A DNA stretch of 64,000 nt, taken from positions 1,664 to 65,663 of IMG/VR virus record IMGVR_UViG_3300017776_000007; one strand, given 5' to 3'. Below, in pieces: positions 6,767 through 27,190 of this stretch (position 1 is the stretch's first letter; each line of letters opens with the position of its first letter). The notes below the pieces were generated by a model. That model was not told the origin of the DNA, searched no databases, and worked only from the letters and a program-made list of their open reading frames with translations. Source of the DNA: a virus. Taxonomy: Duplodnaviria; Caudoviricetes. The position numbers were made by a program, and so were the translations under genes.

Positions 6767-6795
6767 TTGACAAATACTTCAAAATGTGTTATAAT
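6767..6795 (+). promoter_or_regulatory. Early sigma70 promoter
   Basis: AAAAAAAGTG-TTGACA(6767)-17 bp-TATAAT(6790). Confidence 0.88.
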
Positions 6796-6818
6796 ATACA
6801 CATATGATAAGGAGAAAT

Positions 6819-19980: not shown

Positions 19981-20008
19981 TTGACAAACTGGTTGAGCAT
20001 GATATAAT
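19981..20008 (+). promoter_or_regulatory. Early sigma70 promoter
   Basis: GTG-TTGACA(19981)-16 bp-TATAAT(20003), extended -10. Confidence 0.8.
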
Positions 20009-20039
20009 ATACCTATATTAAATGATAAGGAGTTTAATT

Positions 20040-20645: not shown

Positions 20646-20674
20646 TTGACAAATGGTGCTAGATAGGTTATAAT
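20646..20674 (+). promoter_or_regulatory. Early sigma70 promoter
   Basis: AAAAAAAAGTG-TTGACA(20646)-17 bp-TATAAT(20669). Confidence 0.88.
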
Positions 20675-20706
20675 AGTACCATAATTAAGTGATAAGGAGT
20701 TAAATT

Positions 20707-21921: not shown

Positions 21922-22967
21922 AAATATTAATGCCCTATAAGGCAGATCGAGGTTTTAATTTATCGGAAGATAAAGTAACCGGTGGCATAGAAAAATTTAT
22001 ATCAGATGTTAATAATAACTTTGATGTGATACCCGTGCGTCTACCTTTAGGTCATTCCAAATTTAATGGAAAGAATCGTAAACAAATTATGGCAGAAGCA
22101 ATTGCCAAATATAACCCAGACCTAATTTTTCTAAACAGTATTGAATTAACCAGAGGAATGCTACGACATGGTATTCCAATTGTTGCTATTTTTCATATAG
22201 GAATAGAAAAGGGTATTACACTTTTAAGCAGTTTACCAGCACTTCAAATGTTAACAGATGAAGGACATCATATTTACTTTGTAAGTGAACATCAATATAA
22301 TTTCTGGAATAAACACTCAAAAAGATTAAATCATCCATTTGAGATTAAAGGGTATATTAACCCATCATACGTTTCAAATACCAATAATGTATCGGATATT
22401 AAATATGATGTGGCCACAATAGGTAGGTGTTCAACATGGAAAAAGCCGTTTTTATTACATAACAAGAGTAAGGATAACCTTTCTAGTTTAGTTATAACAA
22501 CTGCACCTAACGAATCTAGCATGCAAAAGGAGTTAGATTACTACCAGAATAACCTTAATTGGTCACCACCCCAAACAACAATATGGGACTTACCCCACAC
22601 CCAAGTAATAAAAGAAATAAGTAAGGCATCTGTTTATTGCTCAACTTGCCCCGATGAATCGTACGGTATCACCTCGCTAGAGGCGTTATCTCAAGGATTA
22701 CCTATTATACTATTATGTGATAAAACTATGAATCATGCGAGCGAATGCATTCCAGCTAGTAGTACGCATTATGTGAAGTTATCAAATAAGTGTAGTTCCG
22801 ATGAATTTAAAGAAGCAGTAGATTCACTACAAGTGCTAGATCGAGCAGAGATTGCCGATATGACTAGGGAAAAACATTCATTGGAGAATTGGGAGAGGTC
22901 TATACAAACTATATTTGATAATAGACTTAATGATAAAAACATACATAATTTATTAAACTTTTTTTAA
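21918..22967 (+). CDS. GT-B glycosyltransferase (group 1 / GT4-like)
   Basis: TGGIEKF N-terminal motif, IGR, ESYGITSLEALSQGLP (E-x7-E). Confidence 0.85.
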   Translation: MKILMPYKADRGFNLSEDKVTGGIEKFISDVNNNFDVIPVRLPLGHSKFNGKNRKQIMAEAIAKYNPDLIFLNSIELTRGMLRHGIPIVAIFHIGIEKGITLLSSLPALQMLTDEGHHIYFVSEHQYNFWNKHSKRLNHPFEIKGYINPSYVSNTNNVSDIKYDVATIGRCSTWKKPFLLHNKSKDNLSSLVITTAPNESSMQKELDYYQNNLNWSPPQTTIWDLPHTQVIKEISKASVYCSTCPDESYGITSLEALSQGLPIILLCDKTMNHASECIPASSTHYVKLSNKCSSDEFKEAVDSLQVLDRAEIADMTREKHSLENWERSIQTIFDNRLNDKNIHNLLNFF

Positions 22968-22974
22968 AAAAGTG

Positions 22975-23003
22975 TTGACAAATATAAAAGTATGTGATAT
23001 AAT
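22975..23003 (+). promoter_or_regulatory. Early sigma70 promoter
   Basis: AAAAAAGTG-TTGACA(22975)-17 bp-TATAAT(22998), extended -10. Confidence 0.88.
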
Positions 23004-23035
23004 ATACATATAATTTAATGATAAGGAGTTATTTT

Positions 23036-23314
23036 ATGGATAGATTAAAACTAATCAAAGCGGCCGCAGAAAAGGCCCAAATTAAAAAGGCAATAAACGA
23101 TGTTGCCAATCGTAAGGCGGCAATCAAGGCCGAAATGAAACTTCATAAGAAGTTAACCAAATCAGTTAAAAAGGCAGAACATCAAGCGCCTAAAAGTTTA
23201 GAGGCCTTCTCAGAAGATAACCTCTATTATACCGAGAGGGAGACCCAAGACTATCTTGCTGGAACCTCTTACATGGAAACATACCAATCTATGAGGTCAC
23301 AAGATGAATACTAA
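23036..23314 (+). CDS. Early hypothetical protein (Lys/Ala-rich helix)
   Basis: TGATAAGGAG SD before ATG 23036. Confidence 0.7.
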   Translation: MDRLKLIKAAAEKAQIKKAINDVANRKAAIKAEMKLHKKLTKSVKKAEHQAPKSLEAFSEDNLYYTERETQDYLAGTSYMETYQSMRSQDEY

Positions 23315-23477
23315 AATTGACAGTGTCAGTTTAGATGTTATAGAAAAATTGGTAAAAGATTATCCCAACAATATGCAATTGGGTGAAGAAGTCAGAAAGC
23401 TGTACCATAAAATTATGGACATGCCAATTGTCGATGATGCCGGATGTGATATCAAGACAGGGAAGTTTTTAGGATGA
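23304..23477 (+). CDS. Small hypothetical protein (57 aa; not in ORF track)
   Basis: MNTKIDSVSLDVIEKLVKDYPNNMQLGEEVRKLY...; GAGG SD. Confidence 0.6.
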   Translation: MNTKIDSVSLDVIEKLVKDYPNNMQLGEEVRKLYHKIMDMPIVDDAGCDIKTGKFLG

Positions 23478-23644
23478 TGTCCATGGAACTAGCCATGAAA
23501 AGGCTAAACGCACTAACTAAGGCCGAAGAGAAAGCCACTAACCCAGACTTTAAGAAACTATGGGCCAGTAAAAGAAAAGAACTGGTAGAAATATTACAAT
23601 CAGGTAGCTCGTATGATGAGTTATCGGGAGAATACATATGCTAG
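23474..23644 (+). CDS. Small hypothetical protein (56 aa; not in ORF track)
   Basis: ATGA overlap; RLNALTKAEEKATNPDFKKLWASK. Confidence 0.6.
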   Translation: MMSMELAMKRLNALTKAEEKATNPDFKKLWASKRKELVEILQSGSSYDELSGEYIC

Positions 23645-23844
23645 AAACATTAAGTGCTTATGCAATTATGTTTGTAGTCTTAATACTGTCATATATTGGA
23701 ATACATATGACCTTTGAGAAAGACGCAAAGAAACATATCCCATTAATTTGGGAAAAAGGTGGTTTATTATATAAACTATTTTATCCAGAAAGTCAACCGT
23801 TTGACAAATCAAAAACAACATATCGTGACGGAGATAACACATGA
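23638..23844 (+). CDS. Small membrane protein
   Basis: GGAGA SD, N-terminal TM. Confidence 0.6.
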   Translation: MLETLSAYAIMFVVLILSYIGIHMTFEKDAKKHIPLIWEKGGLLYKLFYPESQPFDKSKTTYRDGDNT

Positions 23845-24080
23845 GCGATGGACAAATGAAGTATATGGAACTTAGTTCCTACTTTGAAAAGAACCGAAAG
23901 GCCGATGTAGTAAGAACAGTCGGTCTTATGGAAAATAACTATTTTGGAGTACGCTACAGTATTGATAACAACGTGCTAGGCATTGAATGGTATCCTACTA
24001 AATCTGAAGCCTACTCCGAGAGTGCAGCAGAGAATTATGTAATGGGGATTAAGGAGTACCCCTCTAATCCTGCACTTTAA
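23841..24080 (+). CDS. Hypothetical protein
   Basis: GGAG SD; KSEAYSESAAENYVMG. Confidence 0.65.
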   Translation: MSDGQMKYMELSSYFEKNRKADVVRTVGLMENNYFGVRYSIDNNVLGIEWYPTKSEAYSESAAENYVMGIKEYPSNPAL

Positions 24081-24084
24081 GTTT

Positions 24085-24150
24085 GTAAACCCTCTGATGG
24101 CCCCTTCAACTCCTTATCACACGAATGCCATCAGGGGGTTTACTTTTATT
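24085..24150 (+). terminator. Terminator-like hairpin with anti-Shine-Dalgarno loop (candidate regulatory RNA)
   Basis: 17-bp stem GTAAACCCTCTGATGGC/GCCATCAGGGGGTTTAC (one G:U), 25-nt loop containing AACTCCTTATCAC, followed by TTTTATT. Confidence 0.65.
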
Positions 24151-24167
24151 AAAAAGCGTGGTATAAT
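24139..24167 (+). promoter_or_regulatory. Early sigma70 promoter, GTTTAC-type -35
   Basis: TTTACT(24139)-17 bp-TATAAT(24162), extended -10 TG. Confidence 0.75.
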
Positions 24168-24193
24168 ATATCCATATCAATTAAGGAGTAATT

Positions 24194-25369
24194 ATGGTAA
24201 GTAAAGCATTAGAAAAGAAAAGAGTTAAGGGCAGGAAGAATCGTGTCACTATTGAAGATAAGTATTTAGGCCCAGAGCCATGGTGGGATGAGGATAATCC
24301 ACCCCCAACTGACCAGGGTGAACGAAATATTGCATGGACAAAAGGTGCCCATTGGTATAACTACTTTTATAAGGCAAAAGATTATATTCCTTTTATTATT
24401 CGTTATGCAGAAGAAGTATGTAAGTTTGATAAAAAGTCAATTGATGCAATTAAGGCATTAAGGGACTGGGAAATACAGCAAGGATGTGGCGCAGTCGCCC
24501 GATTACATTTTCGTGGATGGAACCATGAAGAGGCATTACAAGAACGAGTACTTACAGAATTAAAATCCAAAGTCGAAAAAGGTAAAGAGCTACTAAAAGA
24601 AAAGAAAGAAATTAAAAAGAATGCTCCACCTGTCATCAGTCCTGCACAAAGGGCATATATGAACATGATGGAAACTATTCATGCTGATTGGGATGAAATG
24701 GTAATCGATAGTTGGATGGATGGAAACTTTAAACCAGACTTTAATGTTTATGAATTATGGAAGAAACACGGTCTGAAAGGTAATGTGATTAATGCCTTTA
24801 AAGAAAAAGTACAAATGGAATATGATGTAATTTCTGACGCTTACAACAATAATTGTGACCAAGCCGTAGAGGCATATTCCCATATCACAAGACGAAGACA
24901 AAAGAAGATGTTGAACCTAATGGATAATGTCTTCTCCGATCTTGATAAATTAAAAGATAGTTTCAAGGCAGTAAGAATGCCAAGAGCTAAGAAACCAAAA
25001 TCAACAGATGCTCAAGTTGCAGGTTTAAAATACATGCAAGAAGACATCGAATCAAAAGTAACCTCTATTAATCCTGTACTAATACCAGGCAAAGAACACT
25101 TACTTGTATATAATGTAAAATACAGGTCACTTGCTCATTATGTCAGTACTGCTACTAAAGGGTTTGAGGTAAGAGGTACTACACTTTATAACTTTGATGA
25201 AAAATTATCAAAGGGCGCTAAATTAAGAAAACCTGAAGATGTATTACCAGATGTGTTGAAATTCACCCCCAAACAAATTGATAAAAGAATTTGGGATAAA
25301 TTAACAACGAAGATAGGTAGTCCAAACGGTCGAATAAACAAAGACTGTATACTACTTAGGGTAATATAA
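24194..25369 (+). CDS. Conserved T4-like phage protein of unknown function
   Basis: 391 aa; WYNYFY, KLRKPE, NGRIN motifs; upstream of gp33. Confidence 0.7.
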   Translation: MVSKALEKKRVKGRKNRVTIEDKYLGPEPWWDEDNPPPTDQGERNIAWTKGAHWYNYFYKAKDYIPFIIRYAEEVCKFDKKSIDAIKALRDWEIQQGCGAVARLHFRGWNHEEALQERVLTELKSKVEKGKELLKEKKEIKKNAPPVISPAQRAYMNMMETIHADWDEMVIDSWMDGNFKPDFNVYELWKKHGLKGNVINAFKEKVQMEYDVISDAYNNNCDQAVEAYSHITRRRQKKMLNLMDNVFSDLDKLKDSFKAVRMPRAKKPKSTDAQVAGLKYMQEDIESKVTSINPVLIPGKEHLLVYNVKYRSLAHYVSTATKGFEVRGTTLYNFDEKLSKGAKLRKPEDVLPDVLKFTPKQIDKRIWDKLTTKIGSPNGRINKDCILLRVI

Positions 25370-25376
25370 GGAAGGC

Positions 25377-25613
25377 ATGATTGAGCAAAAAATTATGACA
25401 AGGAAAAGGTTCTCTACTGCGGTAGAGAGTCTTGTTTCAGAAAGTAAGGGGTTGTCCTATATTGAGGCAGCTGCTTACATTATAGAAGAAAGAGGAATGG
25501 ATTTTAAAAGTCTGAACAGGCTATTATCTGATTCTCTTAAACAGAAAATCGAGGCAGAGGCCATTGATTTAAATTTACTTAGGACAAAACAGACAAATAA
25601 GTTGCCGGTATGA
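25377..25613 (+). CDS. Late-promoter transcription coactivator gp33
   Basis: SYIEA..., LKQKIEAEAIDLNLL...KLPV; gene order 33-59-32. Confidence 0.85.
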   Translation: MIEQKIMTRKRFSTAVESLVSESKGLSYIEAAAYIIEERGMDFKSLNRLLSDSLKQKIEAEAIDLNLLRTKQTNKLPV

Positions 25614-26197
25614 TGGATCCATTTGAATCTTATAAATTATATAATGCATTAAAATTGCATTTTGAAACCGACGGGTATGATGCGGTAAAGTATAATTATA
25701 AATCCAATGTTACACCACAGTCCTTTTTTAAAAGAAAGGATAAGTATTTCTTTGCTAAATTGGCAAAGAAGTATAATGGAAATTTAAAGGACTTCTACAT
25801 ATCACAATTCGTTAACACAGAATCATATGTTGGCGATATGATGGATGAAGAGGCAGATAAACATTATACAAACTATAAAAGAATTCAAGAAAGCATACAT
25901 CGTGTGTTTTCAATTGATATAAATAAACTAGGTGAACAAGAAAGGAAGTTCGATGAGCTCTTTAAGAGTTATCACGGACAACTACCCTTGGTCATCAAGT
26001 TATGGCTTCAGGATGAAATCAGTTTAGAAACTGTAGTGATTCTTGATTCCATACTGGGGTTTATAGAACGTGAATCCGATAAAATATCAGATACCATTAT
26101 ATGGCCTGATTTAAAAAGGAGAATCAATAAATATAAACCCTTCGTAAATTATACGAAAGATAAATGCATGAAGTTGTTGACAAATGTGTTTGTTTGA
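25610..26197 (+). CDS. Helicase loader gp59
   Basis: Y.ALKLHF...YD.VKYN, KRKDKYFFAKL, ISLETVVIL. Confidence 0.88.
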   Translation: MMDPFESYKLYNALKLHFETDGYDAVKYNYKSNVTPQSFFKRKDKYFFAKLAKKYNGNLKDFYISQFVNTESYVGDMMDEEADKHYTNYKRIQESIHRVFSIDINKLGEQERKFDELFKSYHGQLPLVIKLWLQDEISLETVVILDSILGFIERESDKISDTIIWPDLKRRINKYKPFVNYTKDKCMKLLTNVFV

Positions 26198-26205
26198 TGT
26201 ATAAT
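26177..26205 (+). promoter_or_regulatory. sigma70 promoter for gp32
   Basis: TTGACA(26177)-17 bp-TATAAT(26200). Confidence 0.82.
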
Positions 26206-26287
26206 ATACATATAATTATGAATAAAGTGAAATACAACAGAAACGACTACACTAGAGTCGTAATACAACGCAATACGGAGATATAAA

Positions 26288-27190
26288 ATGTCATTTGCAA
26301 ATTTAAAGAGCACCCGAGGCTCGTCAATCGACAAACTCGTTAAGGCTGCAGAAGCAGTTTCTACTAAAACAGAATCAAGTTCCTATGGGGATGACAGATT
26401 CTGGAAACCTACCAGAGATAAAGCAGGAAACGGTTATGCTGTGATTCGTTTCTTACCTGCCAAAGAGGGTGAAGACCTTCCATGGGTAAGATATTGGGAT
26501 CATGGTTTTAAGGGCCCTACTGGTCTATGGTATATCGAAAACTCTTTAACTTCTATTGGACAAGATGATCCAGTATCAGAGATGAACTCTGTTCTGTGGA
26601 ACTCTGGCCGTGACGAAGATAAAGCGATTGCGAGAGAAAGAAAAAGACGTTTACATTATGTAAGTAATGTGCTCGTTGTTTCTGATCCAAGTAATCCGGA
26701 AAACGAAGGAAAGGTATTCTTATACAAGTTTGGTAAGAAAATCTTTGATAAGATTATGGAATCAATGCAACCTGCATTCGAAGACGAAGATCCTATCAAC
26801 CCTTATGATTTCTGGGAAGGTGCGGAATTTAAAATTAAGATCCGTAAAGTAGAAGGATGGGTGAACTATGATAAATCAGAGTTTTCAAATCAGTCTGCAC
26901 TATATGATGGTGATGAAGAAAGATTAGAAGTAGTATATGATAAACTGTATTCACTACAGGACTTCCTTGACCCTTCTAATTATAAATCATATGATGAATT
27001 GAAATCTAAAATGAATAAAGTTTTAGGTATCGATGCAGGCGCTCCTTCTATGGAAATGCCAGAAATGAATGTAGTTGAAACAACTCCTATGGCAGCAACG
27101 GCTACAGCCGCTCCTGTTATGGAAGAACCAGCTGCAAGTGATGAAGATGATACATTATCATACTTCGCTAAATTGGCTAAGGAGTCATAA
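26288..27190 (+). CDS. Single-stranded DNA-binding protein gp32
   Basis: DDRFWKP, GNGYAVIRFLP, HGFKGPTG.WYIENS, FGKKIFDKI, acidic tail. Confidence 0.95.
   Translation: MSFANLKSTRGSSIDKLVKAAEAVSTKTESSSYGDDRFWKPTRDKAGNGYAVIRFLPAKEGEDLPWVRYWDHGFKGPTGLWYIENSLTSIGQDDPVSEMNSVLWNSGRDEDKAIARERKRRLHYVSNVLVVSDPSNPENEGKVFLYKFGKKIFDKIMESMQPAFEDEDPINPYDFWEGAEFKIKIRKVEGWVNYDKSEFSNQSALYDGDEERLEVVYDKLYSLQDFLDPSNYKSYDELKSKMNKVLGIDAGAPSMEMPEMNVVETTPMAATATAAPVMEEPAASDEDDTLSYFAKLAKES

Follow-up and report, generated by a model that had tools for sequence, protein, structure and literature searches.

A conserved hairpin with a loop complementary to early ribosome-binding sites: a candidate regulatory RNA in marine T4-like phages

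Why should a hairpin at the end of an early operon carry in its loop the exact complement of a distant ribosome-binding site (RBS)? The window, as we call the whole 64,000-nt stretch of DNA that was analysed, derives from an uncultured marine T4-like phage resembling pelagimyophages, and the hairpin lies at the 3' end of its block of small early genes. A first-pass annotation had described a 17-bp stem, a 25-nt loop and a T-rich tail, and had suggested an RNA that silences early genes. The structure is present as described, and the locus is laid out as follows.

23841-24080, + strand: final gene in the early operon, encoding 79 aa without a match to any family and ending with a stop codon 4 nt ahead of the stem.
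24085-24101, + strand: 5' arm of the hairpin, pairing with 24127-24143 and covarying with the 3' arm in 14 relatives.
24102-24126, + strand: hairpin loop of 25 nt, from sequence reading and fold.
24105-24107 (TTC) with 24123-24125 (GAA), + strand: inner 3-bp helix in the loop, leaving a 15-nt apical loop.
24108-24120, + strand: anti-RBS core AACUCCUUAUCAC (DNA AACTCCTTATCAC), exact complement of 20689-20701.
24127-24143, + strand: 3' arm of the hairpin, from reading, fold and covariation.
24144-24150, + strand: T-rich tail TTTTATT, a possible terminator U-tract, from reading; not conserved in relatives.
24139-24167, + strand: the next early promoter, of the form TTTACT-N17-TATAAT and carrying TG at -15; the 3' arm contains its -35 box, as had been claimed.
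24194-25369, + strand: conserved 391-aa gene, phrog_11903, function unknown; RBS AAGGAGT at 24183-24189, ATG at 24194.

The stem comprises 16 Watson-Crick pairs and one U.G pair. The segment 24070-24165 folds with -34.3 kcal/mol (z -5.34), and none of 200 shuffled sequences was equally stable. The loop core 24108-24120 is predicted to be unpaired in three transcript contexts (P = 0.997), and a partition-function fold of 23841-24260, a model that does not include pseudoknots, likewise leaves the loop free. A potential kissing partner, GGGGATTAAGGAGTACCCC at 24043-24061, was rejected: it is made of plain G-I-K-E-Y-P codons and is not kept in relatives. On the minus strand of the loop, TTG immediately follows GGAG and there is no other start codon within 12 nt; the earlier statement that a properly spaced start is missing there is borne out, and a minus-strand open reading frame in the window was rejected for this reason. 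A scan of 23000-25000 against the Rfam covariance models, with E values up to 10, returned five weak matches to unrelated families at the level of chance. Among the folds upstream of the 10 early-type promoters in the window, the hairpin (-31.3 kcal/mol) stands apart from the other nine (-4.7 to -21.9 kcal/mol). In a scan of seven records, six gave one strong hairpin each with CTCCT in the loop and none gave more; the hairpin of the seventh, a clade E record (G007), lies outside the stem criteria of that scan.

Is the structure maintained by selection? The upstream regions of relatives were gathered solely via the neighbouring 391-aa protein, identical regions were counted once and six were left out as too short (L016, L063, L079, L306, L326 and L348). 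A hairpin with CUCCU in its loop occurs in 47 of the 58 distinct regions from viral contigs and in 61 of the 69 from metagenome contigs, two sets that share some contigs and are not independent; it is missing in 11 and 8, respectively. The stems of the relatives are G+C-rich, 11-20 bp long and belong to at least nine unrelated sequences. In the alignment of clades A and B (14 sequences) 98.9% of the cells pair and 7 of 20 pairs have changed on both sides, and the inner 3-bp helix is paired in 97.6% of the cells; in clade J (13 sequences) pairing is complete (100%) and 10 of 14 pairs have changed on both sides. The covariation score was reached by 0 of 500 shuffles in either alignment. With covariation in both alignments and at least nine unrelated stem sequences, the structure is real and selected. 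The strand can also be read from these alignments. Cells with G.U on the + strand number 29 in clade A/B and 19 in clade J, against 3 and 0 non-pairs. As such cells become A.C mismatches on the minus strand, the wobble pairs fit a + strand RNA only, and a minus-strand RNA was rejected on this ground.

The loop, in turn, is fixed. It keeps ACUCCUU, mostly as ACUCCUUAUCA, down to about 41% protein identity; in the metagenome set the core is NACTCCTTATCA in 46 of 61 hairpins, and clades A, B, C, H, I and J show no variation in the 11-mer ACTCCTTATCA. Some relatives (L086, L088 and L340) even have ACUCCUU twice within one loop. The hairpin always sits between the same two genes, whether a promoter follows or not, and the 79-aa gene gave 102 tblastn matches in the loci of relatives. 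One clade has the hairpin about 20 nt ahead of the next start codon with no promoter between them, and clade E, which has no promoter 3' of the hairpin, nevertheless keeps the loop motif, even doubled. Cultured phages gave no megablast match to 22900-25400. By tblastn the 391-aa protein reaches at most 24-33% identity, in Cr30, phiM12-type, PA5oct-type and other phages, and none of the 12 ACTCCTTW sites in the cultured relatives HTVC008M and Melnitz falls in the loop of a strong hairpin. The hairpin is a ready marker for this uncultured phage group.

The description as a terminator holds in part. Stem and TTTTATT tail are present in the window. The loop measures 25 nt (15 nt if counted from the inner helix), and the hairpin is absent from the list of an intrinsic-terminator scan of the window that accepts loops of 3-8 nt only. 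The U-tract is a feature of the window that many relatives do not share (for example L010, L027 and L068), and in clade E no promoter comes after the hairpin.

What does the fixed loop match? The sites in the window, all of them RBSs, are the following.

20689-20701, + strand: candidate target RBS GTGATAAGGAGTT of a first gene of 168 aa; promoter at 20646-20674; exact 13-nt complement.
20023-20034, + strand: candidate target RBS TGATAAGGAGTT; promoter at 19981-20008; 12-nt complement; RNAduplex -16.9 kcal/mol.
23019-23030, + strand: candidate target RBS TGATAAGGAGTT in the hairpin's own operon; first gene 23036-23314; promoter at 22975-23003; 12-nt complement; RNAduplex -17.1 kcal/mol.
6805-6814, + strand: candidate target RBS TGATAAGGAG; promoter at 6767-6795; 10-nt complement; RNAduplex -14.8 kcal/mol.
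314-323, + strand: RBS ATAAGGAGTT of an internal gene, not promoter-proximal; 10-nt complement.

The motif TGATAAGGAG is present five times in the window, on the + strand at 6805, 20023, 20690 and 23019 and on the minus strand at 24110, against a mean of 0.12 in shuffled sequences, none of which (0 of 100) reached five copies. With at most one mismatch GTGATAAGGAGTT occurs four times where 0.07 would be expected, the copy at 20689-20701 being exact. All four + strand copies of TGATAAGGAG lie 9-15 nt after the -10 box of a GTGTTGACAAA-N16/17-TATAAT promoter and have an ATG 4-7 nt downstream; the annotation had assigned them to the first genes behind early promoters, and its count of matches, including the one at 314-323, was reproduced. 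Matches of the loop of at least 12 nt number three in the whole window, each on a promoter-proximal RBS. The duplex with the 20689 RBS (-20.7 to -20.9 kcal/mol by RNAduplex) is the best + strand match in the window, and the loop-RBS duplexes as a group, at -14.8 to -20.7 kcal/mol, compare with about -8 kcal/mol for a generic anti-SD sequence. When the whole loop is run along the window, about a dozen G-rich sites that are not RBSs also reach -17 to -20 kcal/mol, so that energy alone does not single out targets.

Based on these sequence relations, we propose that the element is, on balance, probably an anti-RBS regulatory RNA hairpin, made from the + strand, which damps the translation of early genes. 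Its targets would be the extended SD (U)GAUAAGGAG(UU) of the first genes after sigma-70-type early promoters; the loop core of the transcribed hairpin would pair with these RBSs and block 30S binding. Two routes can be envisaged. In cis, the loop may act on long early transcripts that run into the hairpin; in trans, it may be carried by a stable 3' terminal fragment left by termination or decay. Translation of SD-led early genes would in this manner be self-limiting and would be shut off as the RNA accumulates, and genes devoid of a strong SD would be unaffected.

The loop might instead act on its immediate neighbour only, silencing the RBS of the next gene (AUAAGGAGUA, 391-aa gene) on early transcripts that read through, so that this gene depends for its expression solely on its own promoter, which yields transcripts without the hairpin. 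The same logic of read-through silencing applies to the T4 genes e, 49 and I-TevI. The -35 box inside the 3' arm, which leaves the loop out of promoter-derived transcripts, speaks for this arrangement, as does the complementarity between loop and downstream RBS (window, 8 nt; L021, 9 nt; clade B, 10 nt). However, clade E has neither a promoter nor an AAGGAG-type SD at this place and still keeps the motif, L086 and L104 have at most a weak GAGA or GUGAGU, the distant early RBSs of the window match over 12-13 nt compared with 8 nt for the downstream one, and the partition-function fold leaves the loop unengaged, pseudoknots lying outside that model. We regard a cis-only role as improbable.

If the hairpin is a regulator of early RBSs, do loop and RBS change together? 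Early RBSs in relatives, including very distant ones at about 41% protein identity, keep the complement of the loop, (U)GAUAAGGAG(UU), and matches of 12-13 nt between loop and promoter-proximal RBS are found in L021, L112, L114, L104, L097, L350, L358, L349 and L359. The strongest case of a joint change is a single contig, L097, with the RBS AUUGAUUGAGGAG and the loop CUCCUCAAUCAAU: the match of this loop is 13 nt long on its own early leaders and 5-8 nt on those of the 16 other genomes, whose loops in turn match the L097 leaders over 5-7 nt. Between the window and L021 a C:G to U:A exchange is seen at the same gene, and clade E has U-rich loops that fit AAAAAGGAGUA and AAAUAAAAGGAG leaders along 11-12 nt. 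The complementarity extends 4-7 nt past the SD core, and these extensions are lineage-specific (GUGAU in the window, AAUUGAU in clade C, AUUGAUUG in L097 and AAAUAA in L104). Tracking is nevertheless coarse. It is seen between three groups of loop types and not inside the largest group, and among clades A, B and C a loop from a foreign clade can match the window RBS over 14 nt, against 12-13 nt for its own loop. For loop types D and F, the match to the respective early leaders (8 nt) does not exceed the control. The best-matching RBS sits on different genes in different clades, and in some of them the match is poor at the leading gene of the operon that ends with the hairpin. The record G002 (65 kb, 39% complete) has three ATTGATAAGGA RBSs but lacks the hairpin, both at the locus and in the rest of the piece. 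The expectation of the annotation for relatives was realized for the conserved hairpin, the covarying stem and the fixed loop, and only coarsely for a loop that follows the early RBS: L097, one contig, has changed both, but G002 keeps the extended RBS without the hairpin, and types D and F do not conform. Loop and RBS tag, 11-13 nt each, form a compact testable pair for which L097 offers a natural compensatory variant.

A fixed loop on a covarying stem is also typical of protein-binding hairpins, such as lambda boxB. The hairpin might be a boundary terminator or mRNA-stabilizing stem-loop of the PeSL type, with a loop kept as the binding site of a protein (RegA, the product of a flanking gene or host S1) and an RBS complementarity that is a by-product of a pyrimidine-rich, anti-SD-like loop. 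According to extracts of PMC4122927, PeSLs of T4-type phages are repeated cassettes with roles as terminators and points of recombination. The order of stem-loop (24085-24143), sigma-70-type promoter (24139-24167), SD (24183-24189) and ATG (24194) is the PeSL layout given in the same extracts, except in clade E, and the place at the edge of a small variable early-gene region of a T4-like genome is also that of PeSLs there (PMC4122927). The constant position between the same two genes, with or without a following promoter, suits this explanation; RegA homologues were found in two of the six related records searched (G001 and G002), and the extended RBS could be kept for another reason, for instance as a RegA operator. 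Set against this, the lineage-specific extensions of 4-7 nt past the SD core and the placement of the matches on promoter-proximal RBSs are left unexplained, and searches with the flanking proteins revealed no RNA-binding family. Pfam has no match for the 79-aa protein, DUF1127 included, and none for the 391-aa protein, which in a PDB profile search gave E values of about 0.1 at best (its AlphaFold2 model, mean pLDDT 48, was left out of use). No other early promoter of the window is accompanied by a comparable hairpin, and the element is thus not a repeated cassette; PeSLs occur in many similar copies across hyperplastic regions, whereas one strong hairpin per record is found here. Nor do the extracts of PMC4122927 mention a conserved loop or anti-SD sequence for PeSLs, and relative to PeSLs as portrayed there the 25-nt loop, its fixed core and the RBS complementarity are new. 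We consider a PeSL-type protein site unlikely. If the loop has an anti-RBS role, information resides in the loop of at least one PeSL-like promoter-terminator junction.

The 10-13-mer occurs near promoters in both orientations, which raises the question of whether the conserved element is double-stranded DNA: a phage DNA-binding protein might recognize TGATAAGGAG(TT) whichever way it faces, with sites around +10 to +20 of early promoters and a single one ahead of the 24139 promoter. The sites of one such protein would change jointly in a genome, which would also produce the L097 pattern. But a DNA site needs no covarying stem that tolerates G.U pairs on the + strand only, clade E has the hairpin without a promoter after it and every + strand copy lies at SD distance from an ATG; the chance that this explanation is correct appears very slim. 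A remnant of an inverted promoter cassette was rejected as a sufficient explanation, as the similarity ends with the 11-13-mer.

Could the anti-RBS hairpin have a broader reach? In T4-type phages temporal control is protein-based, relying on AsiA/MotA, RegA, RegB and gp33/gp55. A rather doubtful extension of our model is that the hairpin acts as a phage-made substitute for the 16S rRNA tail, shifts translation to another mode and times the early-to-late transition. As it accumulates, it would cover the strong SDs of early genes, and perhaps of SD-led host mRNAs, and replication and late genes, without a strong SD or leaderless, would stay translated. Three observations count in its favour. All 11 AAGGAG-led starts in the window, five of them promoter-proximal, occur no further downstream than 24183, at the 391-aa gene or upstream of it; AAGGAGT is scarce in related records (3-13 sites per 35-66 kb); and several early promoters have an ATG 9-12 nt past the -10 box. 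According to extracts of PMC7029224, middle or late promoters of pelagimyophages could not be predicted in that study. A scan of genome contigs for the 16S tail plus the next letters of the loop hit at least 120 scattered taxa, including SAR86, Colwellia, Ruegeria and Cyanobium, and is uninformative on the host and on mimicry of the tail. Were this extension true, RNA alone would time the early-to-late transition.

Fourteen sequencing runs with small shares of the stretch were listed, and four of them, labelled as RNA, were examined. They yielded 10 contigs at a depth of 2-5, of which nine (151-312 nt) lie wholly or almost wholly on the stretch and the tenth (358 nt) overlaps it by 34 nt. One contig of 151 nt (24018-24168) crosses the hairpin and continues beyond the T-tract, and may stem from DNA carry-over. 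These data are contigs, which hold no 3' ends, joints or small RNA.

How does the candidate anti-RBS hairpin compare with known RNA regulators, as extracts of the cited papers present them? The literature search, from which the PeSL and pelagimyophage supplements were excluded, found no loop-conserved anti-RBS hairpin described for T4-like phages or pelagimyophages. The c4 antisense RNA of phages P1 and P7 exposes sequences that pair around the RBS of a phage mRNA and block translation (PMC12197685). It resembles the hairpin as a phage-encoded structured RNA with an exposed RBS-complementary sequence. However, c4 has no Rfam match in 23000-25000 at E up to 10, and it serves one immunity operon of a temperate phage, whereas the hairpin belongs to a lytic T4-like phage, follows the last gene of an operon and would address a class of early genes. 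In icaR of Staphylococcus aureus, the pyrimidine-rich anti-SD motif UCCCCUG located in the 3' UTR binds the SD of its own mRNA; this 5'UTR-3'UTR pairing prevents initiation and generates a substrate for RNase III (PMC3868564). Our proposed mechanism, in its cis form, is of this type, and the 12-nt complement to the RBS at 23019-23030, in the operon that ends at the hairpin, would allow a similar arrangement; icaR is a single bacterial gene, whereas our motif is placed in a hairpin loop and has several candidate targets. The Cuckoo/CcsR sRNAs of Alphaproteobacteria combine highly variable stems with a common CU-rich loop motif (PMC4615179, PMC8034643) and, like the hairpin after the 79-aa gene, follow a small gene. 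They differ in carrying CCUCCUCCC in two to four adjacent hairpins (alpha-r14), compared with ACUCCUU(AUCA) in a single hairpin here, and the hairpin region 23000-25000 has no Rfam match to them.

In T4 itself, RegB cuts GGAG and early mRNAs are inactivated through their SD regions (PMC1702504). A search for RegB gave 0 of 6 partial related records and no match in control genomes either, and is thus silent on absence. The task of RegB and RegA, the shut-off of early mRNAs via the SD, would be the same as that of the hairpin, with proteins as the agents in T4 and RNA here. If the proposed mechanism is true, abundant ocean phages possess an RNA-only layer of control over a whole class of early genes.

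The hairpin separates small early genes, grouped in a block with sigma-70-type promoters, from a conserved module in which the gene for a 391-aa protein is followed by those for gp33, gp59 and gp32. The features of this region are as follows.

24085-24143, + strand: hairpin whose inverted-repeat arms form 17 pairs, of which 16 are Watson-Crick and one is U.G
Between the stem arms, + strand: loop of 25 nt
24108-24120, + strand: loop core AACTCCTTATCAC, the exact reverse complement of 20689-20701
Directly after the stem, + strand: tail TTTTATT
25377-25613: gene for the gp33 late-transcription coactivator

The first-pass annotation is correct in all that it says about the sequence. RNA of 24070-24165 folds to -34.3 kcal/mol, 5.3 SD under dinucleotide shuffles (0/200 equally stable). 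Within the loop, UUC and GAA form an inner 3-bp helix that reduces the apical loop to 15 nt. Partition-function folding in three transcript contexts predicts the 13-nt core to be unpaired (P = 0.997). As had been noted, the -35 box of the following promoter (TTTACT-N17-TATAAT, TG at -15) falls inside the 3' arm; upstream of the nine further early-type promoters of the window that were folded, there is no comparable hairpin. In one relative (L014, 3906-3975) the early promoter is tandemly duplicated between hairpin and 391-aa gene.

The window comprises 64 kb of a 65.7-kb IMG/VR record with an estimated completeness of 39%, and also encodes the gp59 helicase loader and gp32, the latter sharing 55-57% identity with gp32 of Pelagibacter phage HTVC008M, OM43 phage Melnitz and T4-like cyanophages. 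Pelagimyophages have been described as peculiar in carrying curli genes (PMC7029224). The 391-aa protein (24194-25369) is conserved across the phage group, and its distant kin (24-33% identity) are hypothetical proteins encoded by Caulobacter phage Cr30 and by phages of the Sinorhizobium phiM12 type and the Pseudomonas PA5oct type; Pfam has no match for it, and its AlphaFold2 model is poor (pLDDT 48). In Melnitz (MZ577097.1; locus L279, 3485-3937), an annotated tmRNA gene lies just ahead of the gp33-gp59 module, in the region that the hairpin and the 391-aa gene take up in the window's phage group. In the stretch before gp32 (26177-26287), a promoter is followed, 12 nt past its -10 box, by ATGAATAAAGTG(A/G)A(A/T)A..., a short leader or mini-ORF of about 22 codons in the window that ends just ahead of the gp32 start at 26288. 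This leader is conserved in all clades (also at L007 5984, L078 5242, L350 6955 and many other loci) and may correspond to the translational operator of T4 gene 32. Homologues of the RegA translational repressor (Pfam PF01818, E about 2e-45) are encoded in two related records (G001:C1:82008-82370 and G002:C1:62769-63131).

Because the 391-aa gene behind the hairpin served as anchor, relatives were retrieved independently of the hairpin itself. A first search of viral contigs gave 18 loci with 72-95% identity; the hairpin is present in every one of the 15 whose upstream sequence is complete, and its 3' half is visible in a truncated sixteenth. Profile searches found 122 relatives among viral contigs and 86 among metagenome contigs, 80 of each being kept. 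The anticipated recurrence of the hairpin in related phages was borne out: once identical upstream regions had been collapsed, a hairpin whose loop contains CUCCU stands just upstream of the 391-aa gene in 47/58 viral and 61/69 metagenome regions, two sets that are not independent because some contigs are common to both, and is missing in 11/58 and 8/69, respectively. It is partly deleted in the near-identical L072 and L073. In one further lineage (L119/L126, about 1700-1760, and L343), with stem GATCAGACTAC and loop CCACAACTCCTTATCAT, about 130 nt of other sequence separate it from the anchor gene. A loop-conditioned pattern scan returned 30 places, 27 of them the same hairpin before the same gene and three chance matches in coding sequence. 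Six of seven long records examined hold one such strong hairpin each; in the seventh (G007, clade E) the known hairpin falls outside the scan's stem criteria and no other is listed.

The stems belong to at least nine unrelated sequence types, and the loop retains ACUCCUU across complete stem replacement. Loop types are lettered A to J. Among metagenome loops, 46/61 cores read NACTCCTTATCA. Type J, a remote group (41-46% protein identity to the metagenome profile-search query), has the full 13-mer of the window, which is itself of type A, yet an unrelated stem and unrelated loop flanks. Some lineages have U-rich variants such as ACUCCUUUUAUUU, three loci (L086, L088, L340) contain ACUCCUU twice within one loop, and the single contig L097 reads ACUCCUCAAUCAAU. 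Across 14 distinct type A and B sequences, the proposed stem pairs in 98.9% of cells, both sides have changed in 7/20 pairs, and the covariation score lies above all 500 shuffles and collapses once the partner is slid by 1-3 columns. In 13 type J sequences every cell pairs (100%), both sides have changed in 10/14 pairs, and 0/500 shuffles reach the score. Cells that are not Watson-Crick are nearly all + strand G.U (29 in A/B and 19 in J, versus 3 and 0 non-pairs). As the opposite strand would turn G.U into A.C mismatches, the selected structure is RNA or a single strand of + polarity, which is the polarity of the surrounding genes. This strand-specific stem has to be weighed against the proposal that the loop sequence is a DNA operator read in both orientations.

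What might the loop recognize? The claim that it is antisense to early ribosome-binding sites holds, with an exact 13-nt complement at 20689-20701 and copies of TGATAAGGAG at early RBSs. The genome-wide count suggested earlier yields enrichment in the window, with five occurrences versus 0.12 expected. The four + strand copies belong to promoter-proximal starts: each follows a near-consensus GTGTTGACAAA-N16/17-TATAAT promoter, 9-15 nt past its -10 box, and precedes an ATG by 4-7 nt. Loop-complement matches of at least 12 nt occur in the window only at the promoter-proximal RBSs at 20023, 20689 and 23019; 10-nt matches occur at RBS 6805 (promoter-proximal), RBS 314 (internal) and two chance sites on the other strand without an SD. 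In relatives, (U)GAUAAGGAG(UU) recurs at first genes behind early promoters, including type J, whose early RBS AAAUUGAUAAGGAGUUAAUAUG matches the loop over 12 nt. Predicted energies of the loop-RBS duplexes run from -14.8 to -20.7 kcal/mol, roughly double that of a generic SD/anti-SD duplex; ranking by energy alone is unspecific, as some dozen G-rich sites also come to -17 to -20 kcal/mol. Strong SDs characterize the early block: the 11 AAGGAG-led starts of the window are all found within 316-24183, at or upstream of the 391-aa gene, and the 40 kb downstream, with replication and structural genes, have none. At several early-type promoters (window 971 and 3186, and in relatives) the ATG lies just 9-12 nt past TATAAT, implying leaderless or near-leaderless early mRNAs beside SD-led ones.

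When 17 loops are compared in a matrix with the early leaders of 17 genomes, three groups emerge. Among types A, A2, B and C, loops and leaders match over 9-14 nt. Within type E, the loops of G007 and L104 fit their own AAAAAGGAGUA and AAAUAAAAGGAG leaders over 11-12 nt, whereas the loops of L094 and L086 fit their own over just 8 nt. For L097, the match of the loop is 12-13 nt with its own two AUUGAUUGAGGA(G/A) leaders and 5-8 nt with the leaders of all 16 remaining genomes; the 16 remaining loops fit the L097 leaders over 5-7 nt. Compared with type C, L097 has one substitution and one inserted base, each mirrored in the loop and in two RBSs. Between the window and L021 there is a C:G to U:A exchange at a homologous gene. 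Loop and early RBS are thus clearly co-conserved in these comparisons. Their co-variation is supported, but thinly, because foreign loops can equal the genome's own in the A-C group, matches of type D and F loops are not above control, L097 is one contig, and the 65-kb record piece of G002 keeps three ATTGATAAGGA RBSs and has no hairpin anywhere. The expectation of covarying stems around a conserved loop that tracks the RBS is accordingly upheld for stems, loop conservation and the joint change in L097, and falls short in the A-C cross-matches, types D and F, and G002.

The window hairpin resembles a large-loop intrinsic terminator, and the label 'terminator-like' in the first-pass annotation holds in part. 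In relatives, the tail behind the stem simply comes from the -35 region of the promoter that follows, often without a U-run. In type E (L080/G007, L086, L094 and L104) no promoter intervenes and the hairpin ends about 20 nt before the ATG of the 391-aa gene, which has no AAGGAG-type SD (at most weak GAGA or GUGAGU in L086 and L104). Because the U-run is often lacking and type E has no promoter, termination is not the common denominator; what all types share is a stable hairpin within or at the end of early + strand transcripts, displaying an anti-RBS loop. Two further proposals are that the conserved loop is a protein-binding site on a boundary terminator, or that the hairpin silences the downstream gene in cis on read-through transcripts. 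Like the DNA operator, each leaves at least one of three features unexplained: the clade-specific extensions of complementarity, the type E layout or the strand-specific stem.

The most economical reading of these sequence patterns is that the loop would base-pair with the extended SD of promoter-proximal early mRNAs. A scan of the window found no strong hairpin between the promoters at 19981, 20646 and 22975 and the hairpin, and long early transcripts may therefore carry both partners, permitting cis action, for which icaR (PMC3868564) offers a model. The 6805 site would need a trans-acting fragment, since it lies 17 kb upstream; such a fragment might act like c4 of P1/P7 (PMC12197685) or 3'UTR-derived sRNAs. 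The available RNA runs yielded only tiny low-depth contigs. If pairing occurs, translation of SD-led early genes would be self-limiting by either route.

Anti-SD loops in regulatory RNAs are already known from cuckoo/CcsR, icaR and c4, and the hairpin matches none of these families. The literature on T4-like phages and pelagimyophages, supplements aside, yielded no description of such a hairpin. PeSL cassettes of T4-type phages (PMC4122927) have the same order of stem-loop, early promoter, SD and ATG; the hairpin described here, however, is single-copy and has a loop that carries conserved information, a feature that the consulted part of that account does not mention.
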